A stretch of 64,000 nt of DNA from positions 10,016 through 74,015 of the forward strand of contig JBLKOQ010000001.1 in the NCBI GenBank assembly GCA_047602885.1. The letters are read 5' to 3'. Below the pieces are notes generated by a model. That model saw only the letters and a program-made list of their open reading frames with translations. It was not told where the DNA came from and did no database searches. Origin of the DNA: Candidatus Woesearchaeota archaeon. GTDB lineage: Archaea; Nanobdellota; Nanobdellia; Woesearchaeales; WAPJ01. Shown in pieces: positions 1,678 to 50,606 of the stretch; the first letter of the stretch is position 1; each line of letters begins with the position of its first letter. Made by a program: the position numbers and the translations under genes.

Positions 1678-2144
1678 TGCGGTACATAAGGAACAATGTA
1701 AACATACTATTATTGCTCATAATAATCGTAATGGCTGTTACCATGATAGGATACAACAACTACCAGGACAATCTTACAAGGGACATAATGGAAGAGAACA
1801 AGGAGATGAGAAGAGAGCTCACAGAACTAAAAGATGACCTTGGCATGAAAGAAGACAGGCTAAGAGAAACATTCTCGGAACTACAAAGACAGCTCCAGGA
1901 CAGCATACGATTCGAGTCATTATACACTGACATCGCATCAGAGAGAGAGTCTTTGAACAGCAGCCTGTCAGAAATGACAGCAAGATGGCAGGACGAGCAG
2001 AGCAGGAGGCGGGAACTGGAGGTTAGGGCCACATCATTAGAAAACCAGCTTAACAGCAGAACTATAGAACTGCAGGTCGCAGAAGGAGCCCTCGGAGGAT
2101 GCATGGCCTCCCTCACAGCATGCAGAGCCCAGCTCGACAACTAG
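1638..2144 (+). CDS. small membrane-anchored coiled-coil protein (start probably at the internal Met near 1674)
   Basis: N-terminal TM helix then heptad-rich E/R/L sequence; overlaps VWA gene end; native codon usage. Confidence 0.4.
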   Translation: MLEKAFREQGGNMMRYIRNNVNILLLLIIIVMAVTMIGYNNYQDNLTRDIMEENKEMRRELTELKDDLGMKEDRLRETFSELQRQLQDSIRFESLYTDIASERESLNSSLSEMTARWQDEQSRRRELEVRATSLENQLNSRTIELQVAEGALGGCMASLTACRAQLDN

Positions 2145-2171
2145 TGTTAATATTATTAGGATGATGCAATA

Positions 2172-17187: not shown

Positions 17188-17903
17188 GACTCTGTCTTAA
17201 TCTTATCCATAGGAACGCCCATACCCACCAGTATTTGGACAGACAATGATATGAGTCCTTTAGGCCCGCATATAAAATAGATTTTTTCAGCAGGATTACT
17301 AAACATTCTCATAAAATATTTCTCGTTAATTATGCCCTTAACAATAAAGTCATTAATATCAATATCCTGATTAGTAATAAAATGAGTAACCATCAGATTA
17401 TCCTTATGAGCGCAGTATTCCATAAGCTGTTCTCTATAACAAATATCTCCCATAGTCTTATTGCTAAGTAGCAGGAACATTCTATTATTCTTATTATTGT
17501 CAATATAATATTTTATTAGCGACCTATAAGGCACTACTCCCGAGCCTCCTGCTATCATGACAATATCAGAGTCTATAGACTCATCCCTAATATAGGGGAG
17601 TCCCAACGGTCCTAACACTTCTATCTCATCGCCTACATTAAGCTTGAAGAGGGCATGAGTAAAAGAGCCTACTAGCTTGACACTAATCATAATATTGTCC
17701 TCTGTAGGACTAGTGGCAATGCTATAAGACCTCTTCCCAATATCTTCCTGGCCTTTAATAGTACAATTAATAAAATGCCCCGGCCTATAATCGAATAATG
17801 GAGCGCCATCACTAGGAGAGAGTATGAAACTCTTCATATTATGGGTTTCGTCAACAATACTATTAATAGTATAATATTTTTTGGATACAGGATAGCGTTT
17901 CAC
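17178..17903 (-). CDS. FNR-like FAD/NAD(P)-binding oxidoreductase
   Basis: FAD motif RSYSIATSP and NAD(P) motif MIAGGSGVVP; 241 aa. Confidence 0.65.
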   Translation of the reverse strand: MKRYPVSKKYYTINSIVDETHNMKSFILSPSDGAPLFDYRPGHFINCTIKGQEDIGKRSYSIATSPTEDNIMISVKLVGSFTHALFKLNVGDEIEVLGPLGLPYIRDESIDSDIVMIAGGSGVVPYRSLIKYYIDNNKNNRMFLLLSNKTMGDICYREQLMEYCAHKDNLMVTHFITNQDIDINDFIVKGIINEKYFMRMFSNPAEKIYFICGPKGLISLSVQILVGMGVPMDKIKTESWG

Positions 17904-34563: not shown

Positions 34564-35142
34564 CTATTTAGCTTTTTTACGCACTACAAATATCTTATAA
34601 GCAATATAGAATGGGAGGAGTATAATGATTCCTAATCCAAATAGTCCATATCTTATATTAGGATGAACTTCAGAGACATTAAATATCCCTGTAACACCTG
34701 ATACTATAAAGAATAAACCAAGATAGAGACATGAAATACCAACTATACCTATTCTAGGAATCATTCTTGGCAATATAAGACCTTGAACAATGTCGCCTTT
34801 AGCGGTTTTGTCAAAATCGAAAACATATGCTGTCATCATCCATCCAAAGAAGTTATTATTAATCTCGGGTACTATCCTTTCTGAGCTCATTATCATCCTA
34901 TCATTAGGACGAAACGAGCCAAGGATAAATGATGCGATAAGGCTTATGAATATCAGAGGGAGTGATACCATTAATACTGGTAATAGCAGCAAAGCAATAG
35001 AGATAATAATAAGACCTTCTCCAAACAATAAGAAAGCAATACCAAGCAATATTGTAGATGAGAGATATGTGATACTGGCATAAAGTAATATCCGGGTTGC
35101 TATAACAAAATATTTGTATTGCTTATCATCCATAGACAACAA
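34564..35142 (-). CDS. hypothetical integral membrane protein (5-6 TM)
   Basis: 192-aa hydrophobic ORF divergent from the giant gene. Confidence 0.4.
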   Translation of the reverse strand: MLSMDDKQYKYFVIATRILLYASITYLSSTILLGIAFLLFGEGLIIISIALLLLPVLMVSLPLIFISLIASFILGSFRPNDRMIMSSERIVPEINNNFFGWMMTAYVFDFDKTAKGDIVQGLILPRMIPRIGIVGISCLYLGLFFIVSGVTGIFNVSEVHPNIRYGLFGLGIIILLPFYIAYKIFVVRKKAK

Positions 35143-35421
35143 TTAAAGTCTATGATTTATAATCTTTTTCTAATATTATTGGCAGTGGATCATGTTATTT
35201 ATTGAATATATTAGTTGTTAAGATGATAAACATTGTTTTATGATGGGAATATCGGCTAACTCATAAGAGACAATTTTACAGGGCTTATAATACATAAAGT
35301 CATAGTGACTAGAAAAAGGAGCTGTATAATCCTTTCGATAATAGTGCTAAGCATAGTCTTTATAGTCGTTACATTTATAAAGGACTCTTGTTTAAAAATT
35401 ATGATATAAACATATCGGGGT

Positions 35422-38400
35422 TTGGGCTTGAAACAAGTTGTAGTGCAAGTAACGATAGTAGTAGTTATAATAGCTGCGCTTATATTCACATTCTTTAGTA
35501 TTGGAGAGCCTACAATTACAGGTTATGCTGTATTTGAGAGCAGTGTTAGTAATGTCAGTTATGACGTGGAAAGGGTAGTGTTGCCACAAGAAACTTATAC
35601 TATTCAGTTGGAAGATAATGTTGTTGTAAGAGGAATAGTAATTAATGGTTATTATATTGCAAGCAAAGATTCTAGTATTATTGCAAGGCTTGATGAAGGG
35701 ACTATTAGTCATGAATTGAGGTTGAGAAGCAATGTTATTACTGGCATGGCTATCGGTGCTGGAGAAGTTGAGAGTGGTATGATAGAAGAAGACTTGGCTA
35801 ATAGGACTTTGTTGAGGTATGGTGATGGTCCTTATGATATCGATAATGATGGAATGGTAGGGAGACAAGGAGCAGTAGACTATTATGTTGAAACTAATGC
35901 TTCTTGTGTATTATGGAGTATTGTAGGGGATGATGTTGACCTATTCTGTCAGGGAACAATAGAATGCTGTGACAGTTATCTATTGGAGAGCATGGATGAC
36001 AATCCCAATTATTTAGTGTTGGATAGGCAAAGAGCAGGTGCTGACAGAGGAGAAGTATTGGCCAAAGCTGACGGTTATGATTTTAGTAGAATGTTGCCTT
36101 ATGATTTTACTGGTGCTGAGGAGAGACTGGTAAGATTGGATGATGTTTGTTTGGGAAGTTGTAATGTTAGGATGCAGAGCAGTAGTATAAGGATAGAGAG
36201 CAGTGCTTATTTGCATATAGACAGGATTATAGTATATTATGATGATTTGCCAGACGATGAGATATTTGATACAGAGGATGGCAACATAATAGAAGAAGTA
36301 TTACCAGAAAAAAGAGTCATAAGAGAAGAGATGATAGAATATATAGTGTATGAGTCAGAAGGAGGTATTATTGGAAGAACCGTCTCAGAACTAAAAAGTC
36401 ATTATGGTCTTAGCAGGGCATCTGAACGTTCAGCAAAGATATTTTCAATGGATTATGAGCATATCAGTGAAGAGGAAGAAACAGAGTATACCGAAGGGAT
36501 TAATGCTCATATAATTAGAGTATCATCAGAGCTTCTAAATCTAGTAACAGAAGAAAGCGTAAGAATCATAATATTAAATGAATCAGGAATATACTCAGAA
36601 TACGCCAATAATTTATCAGAGCTAAACGAAATACTACACTCTAAAGAAGTTATAACAGCTAGTATCGACAGACAAATAGAATTGTTAACACAAGATACTC
36701 TTAATGCATCAGGGTTTATATCAGTATATAATGAGTATGAGGTTTCTGGTTCTGGTGTTCGTGTATGTATTGTAGATACGGGTGTATCGGGTCATGTGGT
36801 TGAGAATATATCATATACTGGTGTCAATGTTCTTGATGGTACCGATGACATAATGGATTACCATGGCCATGGTACTCTTGTTTCGTACCCTTTGATTCGT
36901 GCATTACCTGATGCCCATTATGTGATTGTAAAGGCTTTGGATGATACTGGGATAGGATATGAGTCTGATGTTATTTCTGGATTGGATGCGTGTGCTGAAC
37001 ATGATGTTGATGTTGTTTCTCTTTCTATAGGAGCTGGATTGTATGATGGGTACTGTGATACTAACCTTGTATCAGAGCGTGTGAATGAACTTGTGTCTGA
37101 AGGAGTCTTGGTAGTTTCTGCTGCAGGTAATGAGGCTGGTCCTTATTTGAAGGCTCCTTCATGCGCTTCCTCTGCTCTTGCAGTTATTGCTTACACTGAT
37201 GATTCGTTATGGTATCAGTCTTCATACTTGGAAGGTCATGCAGTATTTGCCGCTCCTGGTGTTGTTGAGACTATTGGTCCTGATGGTTCTGTGGTTTTAT
37301 CTTCTGGTACGTCTATGAGTGTTCCTTTTGTTAGTGCAGCTGCTGGTTTATTGGTTGAGTATACTAATGACACGGGACTAGTGTTACGTAACAGACTGGT
37401 TGGCACAGGTGATCTGCTTGGTGATGAGTTCTTGTTTTCTCGTCTGAATGTTTCGAGGGCTTTTTCGGGTGAGATTACGAATGAGTTGTTGTATAATATT
37501 AGCGAGGGCGTTGAGGTAGAGGGGACTGTATATTATCGTGGTACGAGTTTTATTGCAGGAACTATCACCACAGGAAATGGGCATTCGTGTGGTATTCGTG
37601 CTGTTGATGGTCGTGTTTTGTGCTGGGGTAGGAATAACGTGGGTCAAATTGGCGATGGTACAACTGCAGGTCCTCGTACGAATCCTACTTTAACTACTGA
37701 TACTTCTGCATATACTTTTATTTCATCAGGCGAACAACATTCGTGTGGTATTCGTGCTAATGATTCTCGTGTTTTGTGCTGGGGTAGTAACGGGAATGGT
37801 GTGCTTGGTGATGGTACTACTGTTCAGCGTGAAAATCCTACTTTGATTAATGATTCTTCAGCGTATCTTACACTTGGGTTAGGTCAAGGTCATTCGTGTG
37901 GTATTCGTGCTAATGATTCTCGTGTTTTGTGCTGGGGTTGGAATGGGAATGGTCGACTTGGTGACGGTACGGATGAAGCTCGTTGGAATCCTACATTGAC
38001 TTCTGATACTTCTGCATACAGCGGAATAACTGCAGGTGCCCACTACTCGTGTGGTATTCGTGCTAATGATTCTCGTGTTTTGTGCTGGGGCACTAATAAT
38101 TATGGTCAGCTTGGTGATGGTACAGATGTTGTTCGTTGGAATCCTACATTGACTTCTGATACTTCCGCTTACCTACATGTTTCTGGAGGAGGTTGGCATT
38201 CGTGTGGTATTCGTGCTAGTGATTCTCGTGTTTTGTGCTGGGGTAGGAATAACGTGGGTCAGATTGGCGATGGTACTACCACCACTCCTCGATTGAATCC
38301 CACTTTAACTACTAACACGTCTGCGCATGGTACTGTTTCTGCTGGAAACGATTATTCGTGTGGTATTCGTGTCAATGATTCTCGTGTTTTGTGCTGGGGT

Positions 38401-41400
38401 GCTAATGATTATGGTCGGCTTGGTGATGGTACTACTACAGGTCCTCGTACAAATCCCACTTTGACTGCAGACTCTTCTGCATATGTAGCCGTTTCAGCGG
38501 GGGATTGGCACACTTGTGGTATAAGATCTTACGATGGTCGTGTGTTGTGTTGGGGGTATAACGAGTTCGGTCAGATTGGCGATGGTACCACTACGACTCC
38601 ACGTCAAAATCCAACGCTTACAAGCAACATGGCTCCATTCGCCGAAATTCCTTGGGTCTTTACAACATGCGAAGCAACTGGTCGCACTGGTCCTACTCAA
38701 GGTATGTGTGACGATGCATACGAATACTCTTATCTGAACAATAGTGTAACTGTATCTTCAGGCATACAATCATGGACTGTTCCTGAGACGGGATGGTATA
38801 ATGTTACTGCAGTTGGAGCTCAAGGAGGATACGGTGGGAGAACGGGTGTTGGGGGATACGGCGCTCTCATTTCAGGTGCTTTCTACTTCGAAGAGGGAGA
38901 GACAATCAATGTTCTCGTTGGTCAGAAAGGTGGAGATAACTCGTTTCGACCGGCAGGTGGTGGTGGAAGTGCAGTGTGGAAGGATACTGGAACCGAACTC
39001 CTCATCGTCGCTGGAGGTGGAGGAGCGTATGCAGTTGGAACAACGACCACCTACCAGGACCGAGCACACGCGAGCAACACAACAAGTGGGAAGGATGGAT
39101 TTGGTGCCACGGCTCAGAGCGTGGGTGGAACCGGAGGTCTTGGAGGTGCCGGAACAGGTAACCGAGCCTCTGGTGGTGGAGGATGGTTTACTGATGGTGG
39201 ACAGGGCACGACGGCTGACAGTCGTGGCCGATCCCTCTCAGGAGGGGGTCTTGGAGGTGGTGGTGCTGTAGCTGACGGTGGATTTGGTGGTGGCGGAGCG
39301 ACCGATAGCACGACGACATGGGGTGCTGCTTCTGGTGGTGGTGGGTACTCTGGTGGTGGGGGTGGGTATTCTAACACAAACGATGCTGAAGGAGCTGGGG
39401 GCGGTGGAGGATCATACAATTCTGGGTTGTTCCAGTATAACGTCGGAGGAGAGAACGCTGATCATGGCTTGGTCATTATCGAGCCATACGGTGATGTCTC
39501 ATTACTCACCGTGGGAGTTACTCCTTCTCCCGAAGCGAACGCTACCGATGATCTTCTTGGATATTGTACGAGTGATGTCATCGATGGATTCGACCGGATC
39601 GACTATGAGTGGAGACGTGACGGCATAGTCGAGTACATGGGAACGTACTTTAGAGCAGATACGATCACAGCGCATGAAGCTCACACTTGTGGTATTCGTG
39701 CTAATGATTCTCGTGTGTTATGTTGGGGACGCGCGGGTAGTGGTGAGATTGGGAATGGAAGCAAGCTACCACAAGTGCTTAATCCAACACTCACCTCTGA
39801 TACTGATCCTTACCTTCAAGTGAGCGTCGGATTCACTCATTCGTGTGGTATCCGCTATGACGGAAGAGTGCTCTGCTGGGGAAACAACGCTGAAGGGCAG
39901 TTGGGAACAAACGATACGACTGAACGACTCGTTCCTACTTTGATTGCGGATGATGCTGCCTACCATTCCCTCAGCGCAGGATACCGGATGAATTGTGCGA
40001 TACGTGCTAATGATTCTCGTGTGTTATGTTGGGGTGACAATGTATTCTCTCAACTCGGCAGTGGAGGTGGATCGGTGAGCGTTCCGAGGCTCATCAATGA
40101 TACCGCTTCCTACCTGATGGTTTCCACTTACAAGTACCACGCGTGTGGTATTCGTGCTAATGATTCTCGTGTGTTGTGCTGGGGGATGAACTGGTACGGT
40201 CAGGGTGGTAATGGAACAACTGACGAGTTCGTGTCATCCGAGACTCCGACCCTCACGACCGATAGTTCACCATATGTAATGGTAACAACAGGTGCCTCTC
40301 ATACGTGTGGTATTCGTGCTAGTGATTCTCGCGTGTTGTGCTGGGGTCGTAATAATAATGGGCAGCTTGGAATCGGTTCGAGCGGTACAAATGTCGGTAA
40401 CCCCACAACGACTTCAGATTCATCTGCATATCACTACATAGATGCTGGTTGGCAGTTCTCATGTGGCATCAGATCGTCTGATAATAGAGGTCTTTGTTGG
40501 GGGGATAATGGTGAGGATAAACTTGGTATCGGAACGACCGGTAATCGTGAAAACCCTACACTTATATCTGCTTCGTTTGCGATATCGTTGATTACTGCTG
40601 GTGAACGCCATGGGTGTGTGGTTCGCTCTTCGAATGGGCGTGTGTACTGCTGGGGACAAACTGCTGAAGGACGTACAGGAGATGGGGTAGGTATTGGTAC
40701 TGAGCACACACCGACGCTCACAACAGACACTTCCTCGTATGCGTACTTACCTGCTATTGCCTCTGGCGTGCAGTATAACCTCTCAACACTTGACTCAACG
40801 ATAACGAATGGTGGAGACTCATGGACGTTCTCATGCCGGATTACAGACGGTCGAACGACCTATCCATACGAGGAGAGTGCTACGATAACGATTGCAAACA
40901 TTATTCCGATTTATTCAAAGTTTGATGGTTCAACAACGAACTTTTCTGATGCTAGTGTTGTTCCTGACCTTTCAAGCGTGAGCAATCCGATTCTTGAGAT
41001 ATCCACGTTCGGACGCATCACATGGAAAGGTATGGTAAACGTTCCTAGTTCAGATTATGATTCTCATGTGCATATTGGTTATCGGTACATTTTTGTTAAT
41101 AGTAGCGCGTTGCATTCATCTCATGATTCGGGTTCGAATTTGAGCTTTTATGATACGGGCTTCGTGCATGCTCCTGTCATCCTCAAAGATAGTTCTGTGT
41201 GTGAACAACCCTTGTGTAACATGACTGGATTTGTTGATGGTTACGTGAATTACTCAGTGGCTGGTTTCTCAAACTACACGCTTGATTCTAATAGTCGATT
41301 GGAGATCTGGGATGGTACTGATCCTCAAGGAGGAAATAATTCGTATGAGGTTGGTGAATCGGTGCCTTTCTATGCAAATTATTCGAATCTGACTTCTGGT

Positions 41401-44400
41401 GAACCGATTTCGGGTTCGGGGAACGATTGTGAGATCCAATTTGATACTGGGAGCGGGTATGGGAGTTTTATAGAGATGGAATTTAACGCAACAAGTAACT
41501 TGTACGAGTACAACACCACATTTGGATCTGCAGGGACGTTCAGTTATAACGTGAGTTGCACTAGCACCCAAGGATATGAGAACCTGAGCGTGACTAATGA
41601 GTTCACATACAATCCTGCAAACTGTTTTGACAATTCGACGAGTCCTATACCAATTTGTACATGTACTGATCTTAGCAGGATGTGGGAGAACCTTACAGCA
41701 AACTATGAATTGCAGAATAATATAGACTGTAGTGATACTATTAATTGGAATGATGATGAGGGATGGCTGCCTGTAGGGACAACAGGTACGGGTTTTAGTG
41801 GTACGCTGGATGGGCAGGGATATAATATTACTGACTTGTTCATTGCTCGAAATAATGTTGGTTATCAAGGTTTGTTTGGTCAGTTAACTACAGGAGGAAG
41901 CATTACTGATTTAGGTTTGGTGAATGCGAATATCACCATAAAAGACACACTCAGTATAGTGACTCCATATATTGGGATTCTTGTAGGATATATCGATGGA
42001 GGCAGTGTCTCTGGATCTTATGTCACAAATAGTATTCTCTATAGTGATTTTCCCTCTACTGGTGGTCTTATAGGAGAAATGAGTGGTGGTAGTGTTGTCT
42101 CATCTTCTTTTGTTAGTGGTTCTAGTGTTTCTTCTTCTACTAGTAATGTTGGTGGTCTTATAGGAAGAATGAGTGGTGGTAGTGTGTCATCTTCTTATAC
42201 GGTGGATTCTAGTGTTTCTTCTACTGGTAGTAGTGTTGGTGGTCTTGTAGGATATATGCTGAGTGGTAGTGTTGTTTCATCGTCTTATACTATTGGTTCT
42301 AATGTTTCTTCTACTAGTACTCGGGTTGGTGGTCTCGTAGGAAGAATGTGGAGTGGTTCTAGTATTGTTGATTCTTACAGTACTAGTAATGTTTATGCTC
42401 TTGCAGGAGAAAACTTACAATATCATGGTGGACTAGTAGGACAAAACTATAGGGGAGTGATAAACAATTCTTATAGTACAGGAATAGTTAATAGTACACA
42501 TGATGATAGTGGTGGTTTTGTAGGAAGCGTAGATACAGGAGCTGCGACTTATGGTATGTATGGTAACTTCTGGGATAACCAGACAAGCGGTCGTAGTACT
42601 AGTGCTGGTGATAATGTAACAGGACTTACTACAGCGCAGATGTATAATATCAGTCAGTTCTTAGCGGCAGATTGGAATATTAGTGAGATTAGCGGTTATA
42701 ATAATGAGACTTGGTTTATTGATGATGGTAATGATTATCCTAGATTATGGTTTGAGTTTGATCTTGCTTTATTGGATATTGAGTCTGTAGGCATTATTCC
42801 AAGTCCTTTTGCTTTGGATGATGAGAATCTCGTAGGGTATTGTAGTGCTACTGGTAGTGAGAATTTTACGAGGTTGGATTATTTGTGGTATAAGGATGAT
42901 GTAGTGGAGTATGGGGGTGCTTATTTCAAGGAAGGAAGTATTAGTGCTGGTGGGGAGTTTTCTTGTGGTGTTCGTGCTAATGATTCTCGTTTGTTGTGTT
43001 GGGGTGCTAATTTTGTTGGTAAGTTGGGTATTGGTAATACTACTCATATGTATAGTCCTGTTTTGGTTGATTCTTCTGATGCTTTTTTGAGTGTTTCTGT
43101 GGGTGTTTCTCATTCTTGTGGTGTTCGTGCTAATGATTCTCGTGTTTTGTGTTGGGGGCTAAATAGTGAGGGGCAGTTGGGTATTGGTAATACTACTGAT
43201 ATGTTTAGTCCTGTTTTGGTTGATTCTTCTGATGCTTTTTTGAGTGTTTCTTTAGGTAGTTTTCATTCTTGTGGTGTTCGTGCTAATGATTCTCGTGTTT
43301 TGTGCTGGGGTGGTAATATTTATGGTCAGTTGGGTGTTGGTAATACTACTGATATGTTTAGTCCTGTTTTGGTTGATTCTTCTGATGCTTTTTTGAGTGT
43401 TTCTTTAGGTAGTTTTCATTCTTGTGGTGTTCGTGCTAATGATTCTCGTGTTTTGTGTTGGGGTGGTAATTGGGTTGGTCAGTTGGGTGTTGGTAGCGCT
43501 GTTTATGATTCGTGTTTTGATGGTTATGAATATTACGATTGTAGTTTGAATCCTGTTTTGGTTGATTCTTCTGATGCTTTTTTGAGTGTTATGGTGGGTG
43601 TTTCTCATTCTTGTGGTGTTAGGGCGAGTGATTCTCGTTTGTTGTGTTGGGGTGCTAATGCTAATGGTCAGTTGGGTGTTGGTAATACTACTGATATGTT
43701 TAGTCCTGTTTTGGTTGATTCTTCTGATGCTTTTTTGAGTGTTGGTCTTGGTTTTGGACATTCTTGTGGTGTTAGGGCGAGTGATTCTCGTGTTTTGTGT
43801 TGGGGACGTAATTTTGGAGGTCAGTTGGGTGTTGGTAATACTACTAGTCCTATTATGGTTCCTGTTTTGGTTGATTCTTCTGATGCTTTTTTGAGTGTTG
43901 ATGGTGGTTTTGGTGGTGGTTTTGGTGAGCAGCATACGTGTGGTGTTCGTGCTGTTGATGGTCGTGTTTTGTGTTGGGGTGATGGTTCTTTTGGTGCTTT
44001 GGGAACAGGCAATACTAGTTCTCAGTTGAGTCCGACTCTTACTATTGATTCGAGCAGTTATCTTAGGGGGCTTTCTCCGCAGACGACTTATAATGTTTCT
44101 TTGATAGGGAGTGGGTTGACTAGTTTGGGGGAGGAGTGGAAGCTTAGTTGTCGCGCTGTAAATGTTACTAGTGCGGGGGATTTTGTTAATTCTACTGTTA
44201 CTACGATTGATGAGGGTGAAGAGGGTTTGGATTGTGGTGTTATCGATGAGCCTGGAGAGTATATTATGAATGGCGACCTTGCGGCTACCGGAACTTGTAT
44301 TACTATTAATGTTAGTGATGTTTCATTAGATTGTCAGGGTCATACGATCAACTACTCTACAAACGATGACGAGGGCTACGGTATCCTGATATGGAGCCAG

Positions 44401-47400
44401 AGCGGGACGGTCGAAAACGTGAGTATCGCGAACTGTAACATCATCAAAGAGAGTCCTGGAGGGAGCTCAGGGAGTAGGCGCCCAGCTATCCTCGGATACG
44501 GCTACTCAGGTACTCCTTCAGGAGGTTTCACAAAATCAGGTGATGAGCATACTGTTGAGCAAGTAAATATATCGAACGTTACTATCACGACCGAGGGAGA
44601 TTATGCTCGAGGCATATTTGTCTTAAGTGGTCATACTTGGAGTGTCGAAGATGTCTCTATCACAACGTATGGAGATGATGCCCGAGGAATCTACAGCGAG
44701 AACTCTGATCATTGGAGTCTCAGGAGAGTTGATATCACGACCTTTGGAACTGTAGGGATAGGACTGTATACGATCGATGCAAACCACTACTATCTCAAGG
44801 ACATCGATATCACTGCTGCGAGCGCAGGCATGTGGATCCGCACGGGAAGTTCGAACTGGCGGGCAGAGAACATTTCGATAAATGCTACGCTTCAAGGTAT
44901 CGCGACATCGGACGGAGGTATGGCTCACATGAGTTTTTACAACTCTACGATCCACTCATCAGGAAGCCGGGGATTAGATACCAATCAAGGTACAGATAAC
45001 ATCAGCTTCTACGATTCTATTATCACCGCTCCATCAAGTGACGATGTATACATGCGTCTTGGTGATGCGAGTCGGCGTGTTACGTTCGTCAACGTGACTT
45101 TCAACCCTTCCAGTGTCACGTTCCATGACTCGACCTCAGGATTCCTCGACGTTGGATGGTACGTCGACTTTCTCGTAAACGATACTCTAAGTTATCGAGT
45201 TGAGAATGCTAATATTAGTTGGCAGGATTCTGGTGTTATGAGCAGTTTGAACCCTAACAGTACTGGTTGGAAATTAACTGATAGTGGTGGATTGTCTCTA
45301 AGAAATATATTGTATGAGTACTCGCAGAACCAAACTGCTAGGTACTATCATACTAACTATAGCTTCGACATAAGTAGCCCATCATACGCTTCCCTTGTTG
45401 GAGCGTCTAGGAACTTCACTACAAATACACAATTGGATTTTACTATAGAGCCATTGTCGTTGGAGTGTGGTGTTATTAGCGAGCCTGGCTCTTATGTTAT
45501 GACTACTAATCTTACTGCTACAGGCACGTGTTTCACTATTAATGTTAGTGATGTAATACTGGATTGTCAGGATTATACTATTAATTATTCGACTGCTGAT
45601 GAGGGTTATGGTATTTTGATTTGGAGTCAGTCTTCTAATGTGGATAATGTTACGATACAGAACTGTGTTGTTGTGCAGGGTTCTGGTGAGGGTGATGTGA
45701 ATAGTGCGCGTCCTGGTATTTTGGGTTGGGGTGTTAATAATGGTCCGAGTGGTGGTTTGTCGAGTGTTAGTGGTATTTTTTATGAGGTTACTAATGTTTT
45801 GGTTGTGGATTCTAGTATAGTAACATTGGGTGATCGTTCGGATGCTATTAGGGGTGCGGTTTCGTATGACTGGGATGTTGTGGGTGTGAATGTTTCTACT
45901 GCTGGTCAGCTTGCTTCGGGTGTTTTTGGTACTTTTACGGGGGGTTGGTTGTTGTCTGGTGTTGATTCTTTTACTACCGGTGATAATTCTAGGGGTTTTG
46001 CTAGTTGGGATTCTGTTGATTGGGAGATTGTGGATTCTCGTTCTGAGGTTACTACTTTTTATTCTTATCCTATTCGTGCTGAGGAGGGTTCTCATGGATG
46101 GGTTCTGTCCAATGTTTCTCTTATCTCTGATGGTTTTGAGTCTGATGGGCTTCATGTGATTGATTCGGATAATTGGATGGTTGAGGGTCTTTTTGTTTCA
46201 TCATCGGGCACTCAGGCTGATGCTTTTTATTTAGAGGATTCTGATGGTTGGATGGTTTATGATTCTGATTTGTCTAGTGGGTCTGCGTTTGATGTTGTTC
46301 TTAATCTTAGTGATTCTTCGTATCGTGTTGGTTTTGTGAATACGAGTTTTGATCATTCTAGCGTGTCTCTTCTTACTCCGGGCTGGCTTGATAGGGGTTG
46401 GTGGGTGGATGCGTATGTGAATGATAGTCTTGGCAGTCCTGTAGAGGATGCTAATGTCTCTTGGAATGATGCTGGTATTATTAGTGGGAATCCTAGTAGT
46501 AGTGGTTGGAATGTTACTGATGATAGTGGACTTAGTGTTAGGAATGTCTTGTTTGAATATTCTGAGAATCAAACTGCGAGATATTATAATACTAATTATA
46601 CTATTAATGTTAGTCATGAGGATTATGATGATCTTATAGGAGAGTCAAGGAATTTTACGGGTAATACGCAGTTGAACTTTACTTTTTTGGGTGAGTCTTT
46701 AGAGTGCGGTGTTATTAGTGAGCCTGGCGAGTATGTTATGACTTCTGACTTGTCTGCTGCTGGTACTTGTTTTACTATTAATGTTTCTGATGTTAGTTTG
46801 GATTGTGGGGGTCATACGATTAACTATAGTACTGGTGAGGAGGGTTATGGTATTTTGATTTGGAGCCAGGGTGGGTTGGTTGAGAATGTGAATGTTAGTA
46901 ATTGTAATATTGTTAAGGATAGTGAGGAAGGTAATAGTTCGAGTCTTAGGCCTGCCTTACTTGTTTATGGTCGTAGTGCTGTTCCTAGTGGTTCTATTAG
47001 TGGTATTGCGGGTACTGCTCATTATGTAGATAATGTGTCTATTAATAATGTTAATGCTAGTAGTAAGGGAAATTATAGTAGTGGGATTTTTATAGTGCGA
47101 GGATGGTATTCTTCTATTAGTAATGTTATGGTTGATACTGATGGTAATTGGAGTTTTGGGATATGGGGCGATTACTCTTCTTATTGGAATATTTATAATA
47201 CTAGTATTTTTTCGTTAGGGCTGTTTAATGTTGGTCTGTATGGGGTGGATTCTAATTTTTGGGTTTTAGATAGTTTAAATGTAGATGTTGAGTTCAATGA
47301 TGGTCATGGTATTATTGGTTTTCGGTCAAATTCTTGGATTCTTTATAATGTTACTGTTATTGCTGACGGTTCTACAGTTAGGGGAATATCTCTATGGGAT

Positions 47401-48882
47401 CTTAATAACTGGACTGTTATAGACTCTTTTATTGATAGTACTTTTTATGATATTAATATGGAGTTAGATCATAGTACTCGTCAAGCTTTTTTTATTAATA
47501 CAAGCTTTAATAAGAGTAGTGTGTATTTTACTAATGCTAATGCTGGTTGGCTTAATCGTGGTTGGTGGGTTGATTCGTATGTTAATGATACTATAGGGAA
47601 TCCAATTAGTGGTGCTAATGTGAGTTGGGTGGATAATGGTAGTCTTGCAAGCAATCCTTCTGCTAGTGGTTATAGTTTGACTTTGGTTGATGGGACGGTG
47701 AGGAATGCCATATTCGAATATTCTCAGAACCAGACTCATACGTTTGAGCATAATAATTATACTTTTAATGCGAGCAAGGAAGGATTCTTACATAGTGATA
47801 TTGTTCAAAATATAACTGATAATGCCTTCATTTACTTTACATTAGAAACCGATGACATTGATCCTCCGACATGGTCTGATCCTTGGGATAACAGTACTGA
47901 TACTAGCCCTAGGATTAATGAGAATATAAGGATGAACTTAACACTAAACGATGATGTTGACTTGTTCAGCTATACTTTTAGTTGGAATGGTACTGGTTCA
48001 TGGACTAATGATAGTATACAGTTAATATCAGGCACAGAGCATATTTTAAGCGTTATTAAGCAAGTAGGATTGCCTAGAGACAATACTATAGGATGGAGAG
48101 TATACTTTAATGACAGTGCAGAAAAGACAAACATCTCTGATATATTCACATTCACTGTAAAGAACACTCCTCCTGATGTTCCTATACTAAATTATCCTCT
48201 AAACGACAGTGATATTTACAATAGAACGCCATTATTCAACTGGACGGGATTCGATGCAGACTCTGATGAATTAACATACAACCTCACGATATACTGCATA
48301 GGAGGATGCAGTGCTGACAACAGGCATTATCAAGGAATAACAACTAACGAATTCCAGCTTGAAGAAGAACTCCAGTTCCTATACGATGACGGATACTCAT
48401 ACTTGTGGAGCGTTAATGCATGCGACCAATATGAATGCTCAGAATACTCCCAAAACAACACGTTCACTCTCTCAAGCCTCTTATCAGTCAGATTCACACA
48501 AAACGATTCGGACTTCGGCATGATGCAGCTCGGACAAACCAATAGTACTGAGGATAACAGCCCAAACCCTCTTGTACTGGTAAACGAAGGAAACGTAAAA
48601 GTAAATATTAGCTTCTACGCCCAAACCCCGTTATTTGAAAGAGCTGCACTGCCAAGCCCATTCTTTGAGGCAAGAATAAGGCCATTAATAGGAAATTATG
48701 GCATAGACACTAATACGAGCTGGTTTGACCTGGACGATTCAGAAAACCCTGCTCACATGCTAAGAAAACTAAATTATACAACAGACAATAATGCCACTAT
48801 AGACTTAAGAGTAACAGTTCCTATAGACGAGCCTCCAGCAGAGAGGAGCAGTACTATTACAGCAATGGTGGTGATGTCATGA
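35422..48882 (+). CDS. giant secreted multidomain surface protein (4486 aa): signal anchor, S8 subtilase, RCC1 block 1, ALK-like glycine-rich domain, RCC1 block 2, GLUG repeats, RCC1 block 3, three tandem beta-helix modules, fn3-like C-terminus
   Basis: Uninterrupted 13.46-kb ORF; apparent TTG start (in-frame stop just upstream). Catalytic triad motifs IVDTG / HGHGT / GTSMSVPFVSAAAG. More than 20 copies of an HSCG(I/V)RANDSRVLCWG...G.LG.G motif. Three about 410-aa modules each starting L(D/E)CGVI(D/S)EPG.Y(I/V)M. Confidence 0.85.
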   Translation: MGLKQVVVQVTIVVVIIAALIFTFFSIGEPTITGYAVFESSVSNVSYDVERVVLPQETYTIQLEDNVVVRGIVINGYYIASKDSSIIARLDEGTISHELRLRSNVITGMAIGAGEVESGMIEEDLANRTLLRYGDGPYDIDNDGMVGRQGAVDYYVETNASCVLWSIVGDDVDLFCQGTIECCDSYLLESMDDNPNYLVLDRQRAGADRGEVLAKADGYDFSRMLPYDFTGAEERLVRLDDVCLGSCNVRMQSSSIRIESSAYLHIDRIIVYYDDLPDDEIFDTEDGNIIEEVLPEKRVIREEMIEYIVYESEGGIIGRTVSELKSHYGLSRASERSAKIFSMDYEHISEEEETEYTEGINAHIIRVSSELLNLVTEESVRIIILNESGIYSEYANNLSELNEILHSKEVITASIDRQIELLTQDTLNASGFISVYNEYEVSGSGVRVCIVDTGVSGHVVENISYTGVNVLDGTDDIMDYHGHGTLVSYPLIRALPDAHYVIVKALDDTGIGYESDVISGLDACAEHDVDVVSLSIGAGLYDGYCDTNLVSERVNELVSEGVLVVSAAGNEAGPYLKAPSCASSALAVIAYTDDSLWYQSSYLEGHAVFAAPGVVETIGPDGSVVLSSGTSMSVPFVSAAAGLLVEYTNDTGLVLRNRLVGTGDLLGDEFLFSRLNVSRAFSGEITNELLYNISEGVEVEGTVYYRGTSFIAGTITTGNGHSCGIRAVDGRVLCWGRNNVGQIGDGTTAGPRTNPTLTTDTSAYTFISSGEQHSCGIRANDSRVLCWGSNGNGVLGDGTTVQRENPTLINDSSAYLTLGLGQGHSCGIRANDSRVLCWGWNGNGRLGDGTDEARWNPTLTSDTSAYSGITAGAHYSCGIRANDSRVLCWGTNNYGQLGDGTDVVRWNPTLTSDTSAYLHVSGGGWHSCGIRASDSRVLCWGRNNVGQIGDGTTTTPRLNPTLTTNTSAHGTVSAGNDYSCGIRVNDSRVLCWGANDYGRLGDGTTTGPRTNPTLTADSSAYVAVSAGDWHTCGIRSYDGRVLCWGYNEFGQIGDGTTTTPRQNPTLTSNMAPFAEIPWVFTTCEATGRTGPTQGMCDDAYEYSYLNNSVTVSSGIQSWTVPETGWYNVTAVGAQGGYGGRTGVGGYGALISGAFYFEEGETINVLVGQKGGDNSFRPAGGGGSAVWKDTGTELLIVAGGGGAYAVGTTTTYQDRAHASNTTSGKDGFGATAQSVGGTGGLGGAGTGNRASGGGGWFTDGGQGTTADSRGRSLSGGGLGGGGAVADGGFGGGGATDSTTTWGAASGGGGYSGGGGGYSNTNDAEGAGGGGGSYNSGLFQYNVGGENADHGLVIIEPYGDVSLLTVGVTPSPEANATDDLLGYCTSDVIDGFDRIDYEWRRDGIVEYMGTYFRADTITAHEAHTCGIRANDSRVLCWGRAGSGEIGNGSKLPQVLNPTLTSDTDPYLQVSVGFTHSCGIRYDGRVLCWGNNAEGQLGTNDTTERLVPTLIADDAAYHSLSAGYRMNCAIRANDSRVLCWGDNVFSQLGSGGGSVSVPRLINDTASYLMVSTYKYHACGIRANDSRVLCWGMNWYGQGGNGTTDEFVSSETPTLTTDSSPYVMVTTGASHTCGIRASDSRVLCWGRNNNGQLGIGSSGTNVGNPTTTSDSSAYHYIDAGWQFSCGIRSSDNRGLCWGDNGEDKLGIGTTGNRENPTLISASFAISLITAGERHGCVVRSSNGRVYCWGQTAEGRTGDGVGIGTEHTPTLTTDTSSYAYLPAIASGVQYNLSTLDSTITNGGDSWTFSCRITDGRTTYPYEESATITIANIIPIYSKFDGSTTNFSDASVVPDLSSVSNPILEISTFGRITWKGMVNVPSSDYDSHVHIGYRYIFVNSSALHSSHDSGSNLSFYDTGFVHAPVILKDSSVCEQPLCNMTGFVDGYVNYSVAGFSNYTLDSNSRLEIWDGTDPQGGNNSYEVGESVPFYANYSNLTSGEPISGSGNDCEIQFDTGSGYGSFIEMEFNATSNLYEYNTTFGSAGTFSYNVSCTSTQGYENLSVTNEFTYNPANCFDNSTSPIPICTCTDLSRMWENLTANYELQNNIDCSDTINWNDDEGWLPVGTTGTGFSGTLDGQGYNITDLFIARNNVGYQGLFGQLTTGGSITDLGLVNANITIKDTLSIVTPYIGILVGYIDGGSVSGSYVTNSILYSDFPSTGGLIGEMSGGSVVSSSFVSGSSVSSSTSNVGGLIGRMSGGSVSSSYTVDSSVSSTGSSVGGLVGYMLSGSVVSSSYTIGSNVSSTSTRVGGLVGRMWSGSSIVDSYSTSNVYALAGENLQYHGGLVGQNYRGVINNSYSTGIVNSTHDDSGGFVGSVDTGAATYGMYGNFWDNQTSGRSTSAGDNVTGLTTAQMYNISQFLAADWNISEISGYNNETWFIDDGNDYPRLWFEFDLALLDIESVGIIPSPFALDDENLVGYCSATGSENFTRLDYLWYKDDVVEYGGAYFKEGSISAGGEFSCGVRANDSRLLCWGANFVGKLGIGNTTHMYSPVLVDSSDAFLSVSVGVSHSCGVRANDSRVLCWGLNSEGQLGIGNTTDMFSPVLVDSSDAFLSVSLGSFHSCGVRANDSRVLCWGGNIYGQLGVGNTTDMFSPVLVDSSDAFLSVSLGSFHSCGVRANDSRVLCWGGNWVGQLGVGSAVYDSCFDGYEYYDCSLNPVLVDSSDAFLSVMVGVSHSCGVRASDSRLLCWGANANGQLGVGNTTDMFSPVLVDSSDAFLSVGLGFGHSCGVRASDSRVLCWGRNFGGQLGVGNTTSPIMVPVLVDSSDAFLSVDGGFGGGFGEQHTCGVRAVDGRVLCWGDGSFGALGTGNTSSQLSPTLTIDSSSYLRGLSPQTTYNVSLIGSGLTSLGEEWKLSCRAVNVTSAGDFVNSTVTTIDEGEEGLDCGVIDEPGEYIMNGDLAATGTCITINVSDVSLDCQGHTINYSTNDDEGYGILIWSQSGTVENVSIANCNIIKESPGGSSGSRRPAILGYGYSGTPSGGFTKSGDEHTVEQVNISNVTITTEGDYARGIFVLSGHTWSVEDVSITTYGDDARGIYSENSDHWSLRRVDITTFGTVGIGLYTIDANHYYLKDIDITAASAGMWIRTGSSNWRAENISINATLQGIATSDGGMAHMSFYNSTIHSSGSRGLDTNQGTDNISFYDSIITAPSSDDVYMRLGDASRRVTFVNVTFNPSSVTFHDSTSGFLDVGWYVDFLVNDTLSYRVENANISWQDSGVMSSLNPNSTGWKLTDSGGLSLRNILYEYSQNQTARYYHTNYSFDISSPSYASLVGASRNFTTNTQLDFTIEPLSLECGVISEPGSYVMTTNLTATGTCFTINVSDVILDCQDYTINYSTADEGYGILIWSQSSNVDNVTIQNCVVVQGSGEGDVNSARPGILGWGVNNGPSGGLSSVSGIFYEVTNVLVVDSSIVTLGDRSDAIRGAVSYDWDVVGVNVSTAGQLASGVFGTFTGGWLLSGVDSFTTGDNSRGFASWDSVDWEIVDSRSEVTTFYSYPIRAEEGSHGWVLSNVSLISDGFESDGLHVIDSDNWMVEGLFVSSSGTQADAFYLEDSDGWMVYDSDLSSGSAFDVVLNLSDSSYRVGFVNTSFDHSSVSLLTPGWLDRGWWVDAYVNDSLGSPVEDANVSWNDAGIISGNPSSSGWNVTDDSGLSVRNVLFEYSENQTARYYNTNYTINVSHEDYDDLIGESRNFTGNTQLNFTFLGESLECGVISEPGEYVMTSDLSAAGTCFTINVSDVSLDCGGHTINYSTGEEGYGILIWSQGGLVENVNVSNCNIVKDSEEGNSSSLRPALLVYGRSAVPSGSISGIAGTAHYVDNVSINNVNASSKGNYSSGIFIVRGWYSSISNVMVDTDGNWSFGIWGDYSSYWNIYNTSIFSLGLFNVGLYGVDSNFWVLDSLNVDVEFNDGHGIIGFRSNSWILYNVTVIADGSTVRGISLWDLNNWTVIDSFIDSTFYDINMELDHSTRQAFFINTSFNKSSVYFTNANAGWLNRGWWVDSYVNDTIGNPISGANVSWVDNGSLASNPSASGYSLTLVDGTVRNAIFEYSQNQTHTFEHNNYTFNASKEGFLHSDIVQNITDNAFIYFTLETDDIDPPTWSDPWDNSTDTSPRINENIRMNLTLNDDVDLFSYTFSWNGTGSWTNDSIQLISGTEHILSVIKQVGLPRDNTIGWRVYFNDSAEKTNISDIFTFTVKNTPPDVPILNYPLNDSDIYNRTPLFNWTGFDADSDELTYNLTIYCIGGCSADNRHYQGITTNEFQLEEELQFLYDDGYSYLWSVNACDQYECSEYSQNNTFTLSSLLSVRFTQNDSDFGMMQLGQTNSTEDNSPNPLVLVNEGNVKVNISFYAQTPLFERAALPSPFFEARIRPLIGNYGIDTNTSWFDLDDSENPAHMLRKLNYTTDNNATIDLRVTVPIDEPPAERSSTITAMVVMS
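36700..37450 (+). other. subtilisin-like S8 peptidase domain within the giant protein
   Basis: Asp near 36775 (CIVDTG), His at 36868-36870 (HGHGT), Ser at 37312-37314 (GTSMS). Confidence 0.7.
37560..38620 (+). repeat. RCC1 block 1: seven tandem about 150-156-bp repeats (CATTCGTGTGGTATTCGTGCTAATGATTCTCGTGTTTTGTGCTGGGGT core), CGT/GGT/GTT codon regime
   Basis: Core recurs at 37582, 37738, 37891, 38041, 38206, 38352, 38509. Confidence 0.75.
38740..39500 (+). other. glycine-rich domain resembling the ALK/LTK-type glycine-rich domain (Pfam Gly_rich-like): VLVGQKGG ... LLIVAGGGGAY plus poly-Gly tracts
   Basis: Motifs INVLVGQKGGD, GGGGSAVW, LLIVAGGGGAYA, multiple GGGG(Y/S); GC-richer codon regime. 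Confidence 0.45.
39530..40740 (+). other. RCC1 block 2 (about 8 repeats) preceded by a linker homologous to the one before block 3; GC-richer codon regime
   Basis: Repeats HTCGIRANDSRVLCWG ...; linker VTPSPEANATDDLLGYCTSD ... parallels IIPSPFALDDENLVGYCSAT ... at 42790. Confidence 0.6.
41790..42750 (+). other. GLUG-motif repeat region (GGL(I/V)G(R/E/Y)M(S/L/W)GGSV ... x6)
   Basis: Repeated VGGLIGRMSGGSVSSS-type units about 25 aa long; opening GTLDGQGYNITDLF is typical of GLUG domains. Confidence 0.5.
42950..44010 (+). repeat. RCC1 block 3: seven tandem about 153-180-bp repeats; units at 43216-43371 and 43372-43527 are nearly identical
   Basis: CATTCTTGTGGTGTTCGTGC core at 42958, 43111, 43264, 43426, 43606, 43759, 43934; GATTCTTCTGATGCTTTTTTGAGTGTT recurs 6 times. 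Confidence 0.75.
44200..47830 (+). other. three tandem about 1.2-kb homologous modules (A 44200-45430, B 45430-46690, C 46690-47830) with right-handed beta-helix (pectate-lyase-like) character
   Basis: Each begins L(D/E)CGVI(D/S)EPG(E/S)Y(I/V)M ... TINVSDV(S/I)LDC(Q/G)(G/D)(H/Y)TINYST ... EGYGILIWSQ and ends ... ARYY(H/N)TNY. Module A is in the GC-richer regime, B and C in the GT-rich regime. Confidence 0.55.
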
Positions 48883-50057
48883 AAAAAGCACTGCTATTGC
48901 TGATAATACTATTAACTGCAATCATGATAATAGAAGAATCAGTAGCATTCGGAGTGAGTCCAGGCAGAAAACAGTATGACTACCAGCCACAACTAGACGG
49001 TTACATAAACATCATAAACAGCCATAAGGAATCAGGAGAACTCATAATAGTCGCTAGAGGAGAATTATCAGAATACGTAATATTCAGCGAAAGGACAATA
49101 AAACTGGATCCCAACGTCCACGAAAATAGGGTTCATTATACTGTAAGAGTGCCCCAAGACAAGTTAGAGCCAGGCTCCAACGAAATAGATGTTTATATAA
49201 TGCCGATGACATTCGATACAGACCAGTCCACAGTATCAGCGCAGGCAGGAATAATCTTTAGAATAATAGTAAACCTTCCTTACGACGGGGCTCATGCTAC
49301 AGGAAGAATAGACTATAACAGCAGAACTAACACCATAATAATACCCGTAACAAATGTAGGAACACAAAGAATAGAAGATGCAAGAGCATCAGTAAGCATT
49401 ATAGGGCCTACAGGAGATATCATATCATCAAAATCGTCATCATCCAAAACCATAGGAATAAGAGAAACCATAGAATACAACATACCTTTAGATGGCATTA
49501 GCAACGGGCATTATCTTGCAAGAGCAACCATAGAATATGACAATAAAATACTAGTAATAGAAAGGAATATAGCGGTGGGAACAGCATTAATAGCAGTGCA
49601 ATCGATAGAAATGCCTGAATTCAGGTATGGTCATATAAATAGGATAGACATTAACGTAAAGAGCGAGTGGAACCAAGTAATAGAGGACGCTTATGCCATG
49701 ATAGAAATAATAGGACCTGCAGGAACACTAATAGAAAGGATAAAAACACCAGGAGAAAGAATAGAGCCTTACAGGACAAGCATACTAAGAGGATACTGGG
49801 ACACTGCAGGAATAACTCCAGGAGACCACCAGATAATAGCCACAGCAGTAGGAGAAGGAGGAAATGATACCAAAAGAACCATGGTTACCATAACCCCTAC
49901 AGGAATAGTAATGCAACAGCCTACAGGAAGAGTCGCAGGAGAAGGGGGGATGGGAATACTAGGAGTAGCACTCGCATTCCTGATAATAGCAAACATTATA
50001 CTGTTTGCGATAATACTATCAGGAAGAAACAAAAACAAAAAGAATAAAAAGCAGTAA
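48879..50057 (+). CDS. secreted protein with C-terminal TM anchor and basic tail, translationally coupled to the giant gene
   Basis: ATGA overlap with the giant ORF stop; N-terminal signal; C-terminal GMGILGVALAFLIIANIILFAIILSGRNKNKKNKKQ. Confidence 0.55.
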   Translation: MKKALLLLIILLTAIMIIEESVAFGVSPGRKQYDYQPQLDGYINIINSHKESGELIIVARGELSEYVIFSERTIKLDPNVHENRVHYTVRVPQDKLEPGSNEIDVYIMPMTFDTDQSTVSAQAGIIFRIIVNLPYDGAHATGRIDYNSRTNTIIIPVTNVGTQRIEDARASVSIIGPTGDIISSKSSSSKTIGIRETIEYNIPLDGISNGHYLARATIEYDNKILVIERNIAVGTALIAVQSIEMPEFRYGHINRIDINVKSEWNQVIEDAYAMIEIIGPAGTLIERIKTPGERIEPYRTSILRGYWDTAGITPGDHQIIATAVGEGGNDTKRTMVTITPTGIVMQQPTGRVAGEGGMGILGVALAFLIIANIILFAIILSGRNKNKKNKKQ

Positions 50058-50073
50058 CCAAAAAGGCATTATA

Positions 50074-50346
50074 ATGGTAGCAAATAAGACTACTAAAGCA
50101 AAAAAAACAACCAAAAAGAAGGTAGTGCATCCTAAGCCATATTCCGACCTCACGTTCTACCAGAAGAAGATGAGAGAAGAAATAAGAAAACTGCATGACG
50201 CTACAGAAACATTCGTAAGAATAGCAGTAAACAAGACGGCAAAAGAAAACAAGATACACGAGATAGAAGAACACATACTAGAGATAGGAAGAAATATTGA
50301 CGAACTAGAAGACCTACTGCATGATATTAGCAAGGGGAAAGTATGA
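50074..50346 (+). CDS. small lysine-rich helical protein (paralog A)
   Basis: 90 aa, KKTTKKK N-terminus, shares an (I/L)RKLH(D/K) core with the next ORF. Confidence 0.4.
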   Translation: MVANKTTKAKKTTKKKVVHPKPYSDLTFYQKKMREEIRKLHDATETFVRIAVNKTAKENKIHEIEEHILEIGRNIDELEDLLHDISKGKV

Positions 50347-50606
50347 TGACAACAAGAAAGAAAAGCAGGACAATAAGCAAGACTAAGAGCAGAAAAAGAA
50401 CTGTTGCTAATAAGAAGGATCAGGACATTACTATAGCATTAAGAAAGCTCCATAAGGACATGGAAGACAGTCTAAAAAGGATGGAGTCACTAATAGGAAA
50501 GATAGAGGATGACAAAGCCAAGCCAAAAATAAAGAAAGCCATAACAAGGTTTCATAAGAAACAAAAAGAACAATTAACAAAAGTAGTGAAAACAACAAAA
50601 AAATGA
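50343..50606 (+). CDS. small lysine-rich helical protein (paralog B)
   Basis: 87 aa, 4-nt overlap with paralog A, LRKLHKDMEDSL core, K-rich both ends. Confidence 0.4.
   Translation: MMTTRKKSRTISKTKSRKRTVANKKDQDITIALRKLHKDMEDSLKRMESLIGKIEDDKAKPKIKKAITRFHKKQKEQLTKVVKTTKK

Follow-up and report, generated by a model that had tools for sequence, protein, structure and literature searches.

The window analysed here is a 64,000-nucleotide (64-kb) stretch of DNA from a Candidatus Woesearchaeota metagenome-assembled genome (MAG; GenBank assembly GCA_047602885.1, contig JBLKOQ010000001.1, positions 10,016 to 74,015), which encodes at positions 35422-48882 a protein of 4486 residues, referred to below as the giant. 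The giant ends in a conserved tail, and genes for tail-bearing proteins are linked to the gene of a membrane-anchored partner protein: in 22 of 23 informative loci, a tail-bearing open reading frame (ORF) lies upstream of the partner gene on the same strand. This conserved cluster, recognized by sequence comparison, is a more valuable result than the giant alone. We consider it somewhat better than an even chance that the giant is a partner-docked adhesin/hydrolase, which would serve as the large cargo of a conserved surface cluster and would attach the cell to a host.

The partner (392 residues, 48879..50057, forward strand) consists, according to its translation, of a signal peptide, an immunoglobulin (Ig)-like ectodomain, a C-terminal transmembrane helix and a KNKKNKK tail. 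There is a 4-nt overlap between its start and the stop of the giant, and it matches the partner hidden Markov model (HMM) with E=6e-162. In the giant-first loci the partner was found immediately downstream in four of four cases (the window, L004, L005 and L032). In the partner-first loci a tail-bearing ORF was found upstream on the same strand in L006 and L010; of the 17 GTDB species-representative loci whose upstream sequence was long enough to be counted, 16 had one. The 4-nt overlaps and the conserved gene order suggest that the giant and the partner are co-transcribed. An anchored partner had been pointed out in a preliminary description of this DNA, and it proved to be a conserved companion.

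The genomes with partner loci carry the labels Woesearchaeota, Pacearchaeota or Nanoarchaeota, besides an unclassified 'archaeon' MAG (L028) and two further loci, L016 and L022. These two are short contigs binned as 'uncultured Methanosarcinales', which could be mis-binned DPANN sequences or a hint of the host. The partner orthologs diverge to 23% identity with the architecture unchanged and keep a family size of about 390 residues, while the length of the tail-bearing proteins varies between 479 and more than 3,100 residues, the largest of them running past the flank limit. Nine loci add one or two small tail-only proteins of about 200-250 residues together with a second partner paralog. Each small tail-only protein consists of a leader, a T-G-[YF]-A motif and a tail-like domain, and is encoded between the two partner paralogs. 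In extended clusters (L006, 11306-12941; L032, 13610-14486) an ORF of 60-66 residues precedes each small tail-only protein, and in L006 Polbeta/HEPN and Bro-N genes are inserted between the tail-bearing protein and the partner. A profile search of the partner against the PDB returned only TAL effector repeat matches; these were spurious, and none passed the per-domain thresholds.

The tail of the giant covers residues 4146-4486 (47857..48882, forward strand) and is made up of one Ig/fn3-like and one fn3-like domain together with a terminal beta-sandwich. The last 245 residues were modelled as a tandem fn3-like pair with a predicted local distance difference test (pLDDT) score of 87.5, which agrees with the fn3-like tail of the preliminary description. 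In the relatives the tail invariably forms the extreme C-terminus and occurs in at least 10 giants; the tail HMM matches the giant of the window with E=3.4e-99.

The gene of the giant is one unbroken ORF of 4486 codons on the forward strand with a TTG start, exactly the single 13.46-kb ORF that had been described. The NCBI annotation (MFT4308908.1, "hypothetical protein", Candidatus Woesearchaeota MAG, 85-kb contig) gives the identical start and length, and the syntenic ortholog from JGI metagenomes, which is discussed below, also starts with TTG and reads 'GLKS'. Upstream of the TTG, two A/T-rich TATA-like boxes can be read from the sequence on the forward strand, TTTATAAA at 35374-35381 and TTTAAAAA at 35391-35398, which may act as promoter elements; a GGGG run lies at 35417-35420, ahead of the start. 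Within 36000-48000, G exceeds C and T exceeds A on the coding strand, with the GC skew reaching +0.46 and the AT skew −0.39.

The predicted protein has a mass of 480 kDa and an isoelectric point of 4.25, with 515 Asp and Glu against 206 Lys and Arg residues. It contains 136 N-x-S/T sequons, whereas 1,000 shuffled sequences contain 59.6 ± 6.8 with a maximum of 84, which corresponds to a 2.3-fold enrichment. The hydropathy scan located its sole hydrophobic segment at residues 1-32. The single leader, the acidity and the sequon excess indicate the extracellular style that had been claimed, and such features would be expected in a surface protein that an archaeon secretes and N-glycosylates.

The preliminary description divided the giant into a signal anchor, an S8 subtilase, three RCC1 propeller blocks separated by an ALK-like glycine-rich domain and GLUG repeats, beta-helix modules and an fn3-like tail. 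When the modules were examined by HMMER/Pfam, by structure matches and, for beta-helix module 1 and the tail, by structure prediction, all nine domain calls were upheld. A Pfam scan of the whole protein returned RCC1 families only, and the other domains were recovered by scanning the protein in segments. All domains given below are on the forward strand.

The leader occupies residues 1-38 (35422..35535; hydropathy scan), in line with the one N-terminal hydrophobic segment expected for the signal anchor, and ends in the motif T-G-Y-A-V (residues 34-38; 35521-35535), which recurs about 70 residues further on as ITGMAIGAG (residues 103-113; 35728-35760). The motif is common to related giants and to the small tail-only proteins of related clusters; neither the partner family nor any other secreted protein of the window has it. 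The T-G-Y-A site fits an ordinary signal-peptidase site in having small residues at −3 and −1, and the motif may be a cleavage site, a sorting signal or a donor strand. If the leader is cleaved after T-G-Y-A, the partner would be the only membrane link of the giant.

The leader is followed by an N-terminal 'head' domain (residues 39-290; 35536..36291), defined by its conservation, with a YDIDNDG motif and six Cys residues. It has no Pfam or NCBIfam match and is kept in P0001 (85%), P0002, P0041 and the JGI ortholog. GTDB genomes and JGI metagenomes were scanned with the N-terminal alignment, which recovered no relatives. The acidic linker that follows (residues 291-440; 36292..36741) was without a match in every library searched, and BLAST found no counterpart among the relatives; it could, as a guess, be a propeptide region. 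The S8 subtilase (residues 441-690; 36742..37491) scores 77.1 bits against Pfam Peptidase_S8 (cut-off 21.8; E=1.9e-21) and matches subtilisin structures at E~1e-19. Its D451, H483, N570 and S630 align with the DTG, HGT, GN and GTSM motifs of Savinase, respectively. Thus, as judged from the alignment, the domain is a bona fide S8 domain and a predicted protease with the D/H/N/S catalytic set intact, Asp, His and Ser coming in the order required and N570 being the oxyanion Asn.

Three RCC1 propeller blocks had been claimed, and their blades total 21, that is, three times seven, with a period of 153-189 nt; the profile matches reach 6e-160 for WD40_RLD and 1.5e-121 for RCC1. Propeller 1 (residues 700-1075; 37519..38646; Pfam, with blade motifs at residues 723-1032) is followed by an ALK/LTK-like TNFL and glycine-rich domain (residues 1076-1360; 38647..39501) with 28.8% Gly, in which the GC content rises to 0.51 as compared with about 0.37 in the surrounding sequence. 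In a phmmer search of the PDB, the 93 residues 1080-1172 match the human ALK ectodomain with E=2.5e-15 and LTK with 8.8e-13. This match supports the ALK-like call, although Pfam ALK_LTK_GRD stays just below threshold, with 22.0 bits on a trimmed segment against a cut-off of 24.5. The full segment gives no match to this family, probably owing to the compositional filter. Like ALK/LTK (PDB 7LRZ, 7N00, 7NX0), the domain has an FTTCGA(S/T)G...PTQ..C..AY start, continues with a glycine-rich stretch of about the same length and ends in a comparable style; it differs in that the giant has no EGF-like module, transmembrane segment or kinase.

Propellers 2 and 3 are each nested in a loop of an Ig-like domain. 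In P0057 this domain of about 100 residues is contiguous, whereas in the giant it is split into halves by a seven-bladed RCC1 propeller, once at residues 1361-1850 (39502..40971; blades at residues 1423-1732) and once at residues 2453-2934 (42778..44223; blades at residues 2515-2840). P0038, P0001/P0042 and a 1,477-residue protein of locus L006 also contain the composite Ig-RCC1 unit. The third block (42903-43998) contains young 153-nt tandem DNA repeats, with copies 87-91% identical, and one of its blades has a 12-codon insertion that gives the 189-nt spacing. Between the two nested propellers lie a beta-rich, sequon-dense 'mid' region (residues 1851-2095; 40972..41706), which is shared with nine related giants and has no Pfam match or family assignment, and the GLUG repeat region (residues 2096-2452; 41707..42777). 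The GLUG repeats, also called from the letters alone, score 46.9 bits against Pfam Glug (cut-off 20.5; E=2.3e-12) in four stretches, and the region has a weak NCBIfam likeness to the middle regions of ZmpC/ZmpA.

The three beta-helix modules of about 410 residues each are 46-47% identical to each other, and they were confirmed by alignment, by AlphaFold2 (AF2) modelling and by Foldseek. Module 1 (residues 2935-3346; 44224..45459) is composed of a beta-helix and a C-terminal beta-sandwich-like part. Module 2 (residues 3347-3759; 45460..46698) is 47% identical to it, with an HMM match of E=2.6e-218, and module 3 (residues 3760-4145; 46699..47856) is 46% identical to it and also has an HMM match. 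The AF2 model of module 1 shows an all-beta solenoid for its residues 1-300, in blocks mostly above a pLDDT of 80, while the C-terminal 110 residues or so are poorly modelled. Foldseek matched module 1 to right-handed beta-helices only, namely AlgE epimerases, phage tailspikes, NosD, polygalacturonases, fucoidan lyase and tailspike depolymerases, with probability 1.0, E down to 5e-5, TM-scores of 0.3-0.5 and 11-14% identity. The likeness to tailspikes, NosD and AlgE concerns the fold of the first 300 residues or so of each module, and the 'CG.I..PG.Y.L..DL' start resembles carriers of Pfam Beta_helix/NosD. The differences are the identity of 11-14% and the extra beta-rich part at the end of each module. 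All three modules are below the Pfam threshold for Beta_helix/NosD; relatives of the modules carry PF13229/PF05048.

When the three modules were used in an exhaustive profile search, 1,440 proteins were returned at E<=1e-3, 46 of which were at E<=1e-30, and many of which were 3,000-7,200 residues long; a word-index search with the module profile gave two weak matches only. The segments of the giant were mapped by BLAST onto 187 retrieved relatives. The head, consisting of the N-terminal domain and S8, recurs in P0001, P0002, P0041, the JGI ortholog and others, and a few close relatives also contain the RCC1, GLUG and 'mid' units. The ALK-like TNFL/glycine-rich domain had a BLAST match in none of the 187. 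On this comparison, the individual parts are common in the lineage, while the exact domain order and the TNFL-type glycine-rich domain are unique among the relatives. The earlier statement that the combination is an unrecognized one stands as to the exact order; however, the giant is no orphan but belongs to an extensive family of modular giants, which have its beta-helix module, head and tail in common.

A search for syntenic giants yielded the JGI ortholog (L031, 7135-34040), whose flanks match those of the window with TraB, M17 peptidase, DoxX, Exo_endo_phos, P-type ATPase and CorA genes. It amounts to about 8,989 residues, given as adjacent ORFs of 949, 4,679 and 3,361 residues, and has 21 modules compared with three in the giant. 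Between the ORFs there are a 16-nt gap and a 22-nt overlap, and the three-ORF split could be due to frameshifts, sequencing errors or gene decay. The order of N-terminal domain and S8 and that of last module and tail are the same as in the giant, with an even 72-85% identity over residues 4141-4486; after its S8, the ortholog has a different glycine-rich domain (Pfam Gly_rich_2).

A second giant is present in the same MAG as fragments, P0001 (C-truncated) and P0042 (N-truncated); like the JGI ortholog, it has the modules of the giant in a different number and order. Compared in 60-residue windows, this paralog is 83-90% identical to the giant over residues 61-240, 95-100% over residues 3001-3240 and 96% over residues 4141-4200, which correspond to about 35602-36141, 44422-45141 and 47842-48021, and 30-65% identical elsewhere. 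Such a mosaic points either to recombination or gene conversion between paralogs or to a risk of chimeric assembly.

The gene organization of the tail and its partner resembles that of the WxL clusters of Firmicutes, in which a WxLIP protein (DUF916-DUF3324-TM) is encoded with small and large WxL proteins (PMC10599100); these clusters also go by the name of Csc clusters (PMC9772566, PMC1534035). The C-terminal WxL domain of the large WxL protein has been proposed to be held by WxLIP via strand insertion (PMC10599100, PMC9772566). The likeness lies in a large secreted cargo with a conserved C-terminal domain, encoded beside a protein made of signal peptide, Ig-like ectodomain, transmembrane helix and basic tail, and in the small proteins, restricted to the C-terminal domain, of nine related archaeal loci. 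Five of 10 partner-family members matched WxLIP_HBD, the best with 28.8 bits against a cut-off of 28.9, and one of the 10 matched WxLIP_PGBD with 17.9 bits against 27.3, this domain preceding HBD as in the expected order. CARDB was matched by four of the 10.

According to the reading favoured here, the giant would be exported through its single N-terminal leader and, as the sequon excess suggests, heavily N-glycosylated. Its fn3-like tail would then dock on the membrane-anchored partner and tether the chain of beta-rich modules to the cell; we infer this docking because of the gene linkage and the analogy with WxLIP. The propellers, the TNFL/glycine-rich domain, the GLUG repeats and the tailspike-like beta-helices would bind glycans or proteins of another cell, presumably the host; binding to an envelope is suggested because of the roles that these folds have elsewhere. 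The S8 protease would trim the target envelope or process the giant itself. The number and order of the modules would shift fast through duplication and recombination between paralogs, which would retune the binding specificity.

Several observations weigh against this reading. If the leader remains as an uncleaved anchor, tethering by the partner would be unneeded, and degradative enzymes that are secreted have beta-helix, S8 and GLUG domains just as typically. Neither a small tail-only gene nor a second partner is present in the 64-kb window. The partner of the window itself has no WxLIP match, those of the partner family are at or below the Pfam cut-offs, and Pfam WxL had no match at E<=10 among 10 tails and 10 small proteins.

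Membership of the WxL system was not accepted, because the tails and small proteins have no WxL match, the WxLIP scores are sub-threshold, the tail has an fn3-like fold and the partner of the window lacks a WxLIP match. Further differences are that the organism is an archaeon without peptidoglycan, that the archaeal tail is a tandem fn3-like structure and the partner has a third Ig-like domain, and that the archaeal cargo has 5-10 times the size and includes a protease. The published definition of a WxL cluster requires at least one WxLIP and at least two WxL proteins within four genes (PMC10599100), whereas the window, with a single tail-bearing protein and a single partner, falls short of that definition. 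By analogy, the tail-partner cluster may "work like" WxL/WxLIP, by distant homology or by convergence. The searchable literature contained no paper that ties DPANN archaea to WxL/WxLIP or that describes the tail-partner family.

The same domains can be read as those of a secreted scavenging enzyme that digests environmental polymers for a cell of minimal metabolism and is retained at the surface by the partner. The S8 protease and the beta-helices, which resemble polysaccharide lyases and hydrolases, would do the digesting, aided by carbohydrate-binding propellers and Ig domains. The catalytic residues of S8 are intact, module 1 has its best structure matches among carbohydrate-active beta-helix enzymes, and an M17 aminopeptidase is encoded a short distance upstream in each of the syntenic loci, all of which suit such an enzyme. 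However, no catalytic residues are assignable in the beta-helices, for which the Pfam scores are also sub-threshold, and the rapid shuffling of binding modules and the mosaicism between paralogs are more typical of adhesins under diversifying pressure. An exclusively scavenging role is regarded as unlikely, although the scavenging and adhesin roles are not mutually exclusive.

The paralog mosaic raises the question of whether the 13.5-kb ORF is in part an assembly chimera, in which short reads joined two paralogous giants over near-identical stretches. The three stretches of 83-100% identity against a background of 30-65% would allow such joining, as would the 87-91% identical 153-nt repeats in RCC1 block 3. 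Moreover, the independent short-read contigs L001 and L002 end about 808 nt before the stop codon, beside a near-identical stretch. On the other hand, the frame is open for 4,486 codons with exactly seven blades in each RCC1 block, and the JGI ortholog has the same order of head and tail and an even identity over the C-terminal region. The chimera is considered quite improbable, and its product would still be two giants of one kind.

Least probable of the alternatives is that the giant is the tip adhesin of a pilus-like fibre, in which small tail-only subunits polymerize, possibly by strand complementation through T-G-Y-A, on the partner as a membrane base, with the giant joined to the fibre by its tail: the nine loci with small tail-only proteins between two partner paralogs, the occurrence of T-G-Y-A after the leader of the giant and not in the other secreted proteins of the window, and a low-ranking Foldseek match to the fimbrial tip FocH are in its favour, but both the small gene and the second partner are missing from the window, the motif fits a signal-peptidase site, and the small tail-only proteins had no match in the PDB or Pfam and showed no homology to known pilins.

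A wider version of the partner-docked reading is put forward tentatively, as possible rather than probable. The giant and the partner would be the minimal form of an undescribed surface apparatus of Woesearchaeota, Pacearchaeota and 'Nanoarchaeota', which would be either a counterpart of WxL/WxLIP or a strand-complemented fibre. The fn3-like tail would dock cargo of 480 to more than 8,000 residues, rapidly reshuffled between paralogs, onto the Ig-like membrane anchor, and the apparatus would be the main device with which these episymbionts recognize their hosts and hold on to them.

The nearest described DPANN analogues of the giant are the SPEARE proteins of Nanohaloarchaeota, which have 5,000-9,400 residues and a VirB4/TraG-like ATPase domain, with a second such ATPase encoded next to them, and for which a serine-protease call is disputed (PMC10266531). 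They are likewise DPANN giants with an N-terminal secretion signal and runs of Ig/fn3/LamG-type domains, genome-specific, variable and proposed to act in host interaction. The giant of the window differs by its bona fide S8 domain and its Ig-like anchored neighbour. No such ATPase domain was found in the giant ORF or in the downstream genes, and no sequence relationship to SPEARE was found. Membership of the giant in SPEARE was rejected for want of the ATPase.

Among bacterial giants, those of Omnitrophota have 10,000-85,000 residues with many transmembrane segments, glycosyltransferases and SecA-like parts, and those of Oscillospiraceae contain RCC1 only (bioRxiv 10.1101/2023.11.21.568195). 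They resemble the giant in that some of the Omnitrophota proteins have S8 near the N-terminus after the signal, and in their use of beta-helix filaments and RCC1 propellers as repeated extracellular modules; the giant of the window differs in being archaeal, with a single leader, mixed modules and a tail-partner cassette. The giant is a new variant within a loosely known class of giant DPANN surface proteins.

Downstream of the partner, two lysine-rich mini-proteins of 90 and 87 residues, with 18% and 26% Lys and no signal peptide, are encoded on the forward strand at 50074-50346 and 50343-50606. The preliminary description had taken them as co-transcribed with the giant. This part of it has to be revised as far as a common system is concerned: they are conserved solely in the syntenic JGI ortholog locus (68% identity) and have no counterparts in clusters L005, L006 and L032, and they were rejected as components of the system because they are not conserved past the nearest ortholog. 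Their restricted conservation suggests that they are probably unrelated neighbours.

On the other side of the giant, between the M17 peptidase gene and its start, lies an ORF of 192 residues (34564-35142, reverse strand) with a hydrophobic N-terminal region and no family match; it is not present in the syntenic JGI locus, where the gap between M17 and the giant is 74 nt. The window further encodes a P-type ATPase and CorA, and it has three more features related to the cell surface or to secretion: a 613-residue DUF11/CARDB/HYDIN-Ig protein (17903-19744, reverse strand), a 693-residue Beta_propel (PF09826) protein (11121-13202, reverse strand) and, at its start, a set of VWA and MoxR-type AAA genes (1-3960, forward strand). 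No tRNA or Rfam features were found in the 64 kb. A fused PriS-PriL primase of 534 residues (62130-63734, forward strand) is consistent with the window being, by its gene content, archaeal and DPANN-like; together with the Woesearchaeota assignment of the MAG, it marks the organism as a DPANN-type archaeon, and host attachment, which the preliminary description suggested by comparison with proteins of small-genome episymbionts, is plausible.

Woesearchaeota and Pacearchaeota are among the most abundant uncultured small-genome archaea, and data from size fractions indicate that Pacearchaeota are strongly attached to hosts (PMC7906910). If the function of the giant is generic extracellular degradation only, the finding would be of modest interest. 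The occurrence of an ALK/LTK-type TNFL/glycine-rich domain and of nested Ig-RCC1 units in an archaeal surface protein helps to trace such modules outside eukaryotes. The locus provides a concrete attachment candidate, and the tail-partner pair with its variable binding modules gives a testable handle on how these archaea may attach to their hosts.

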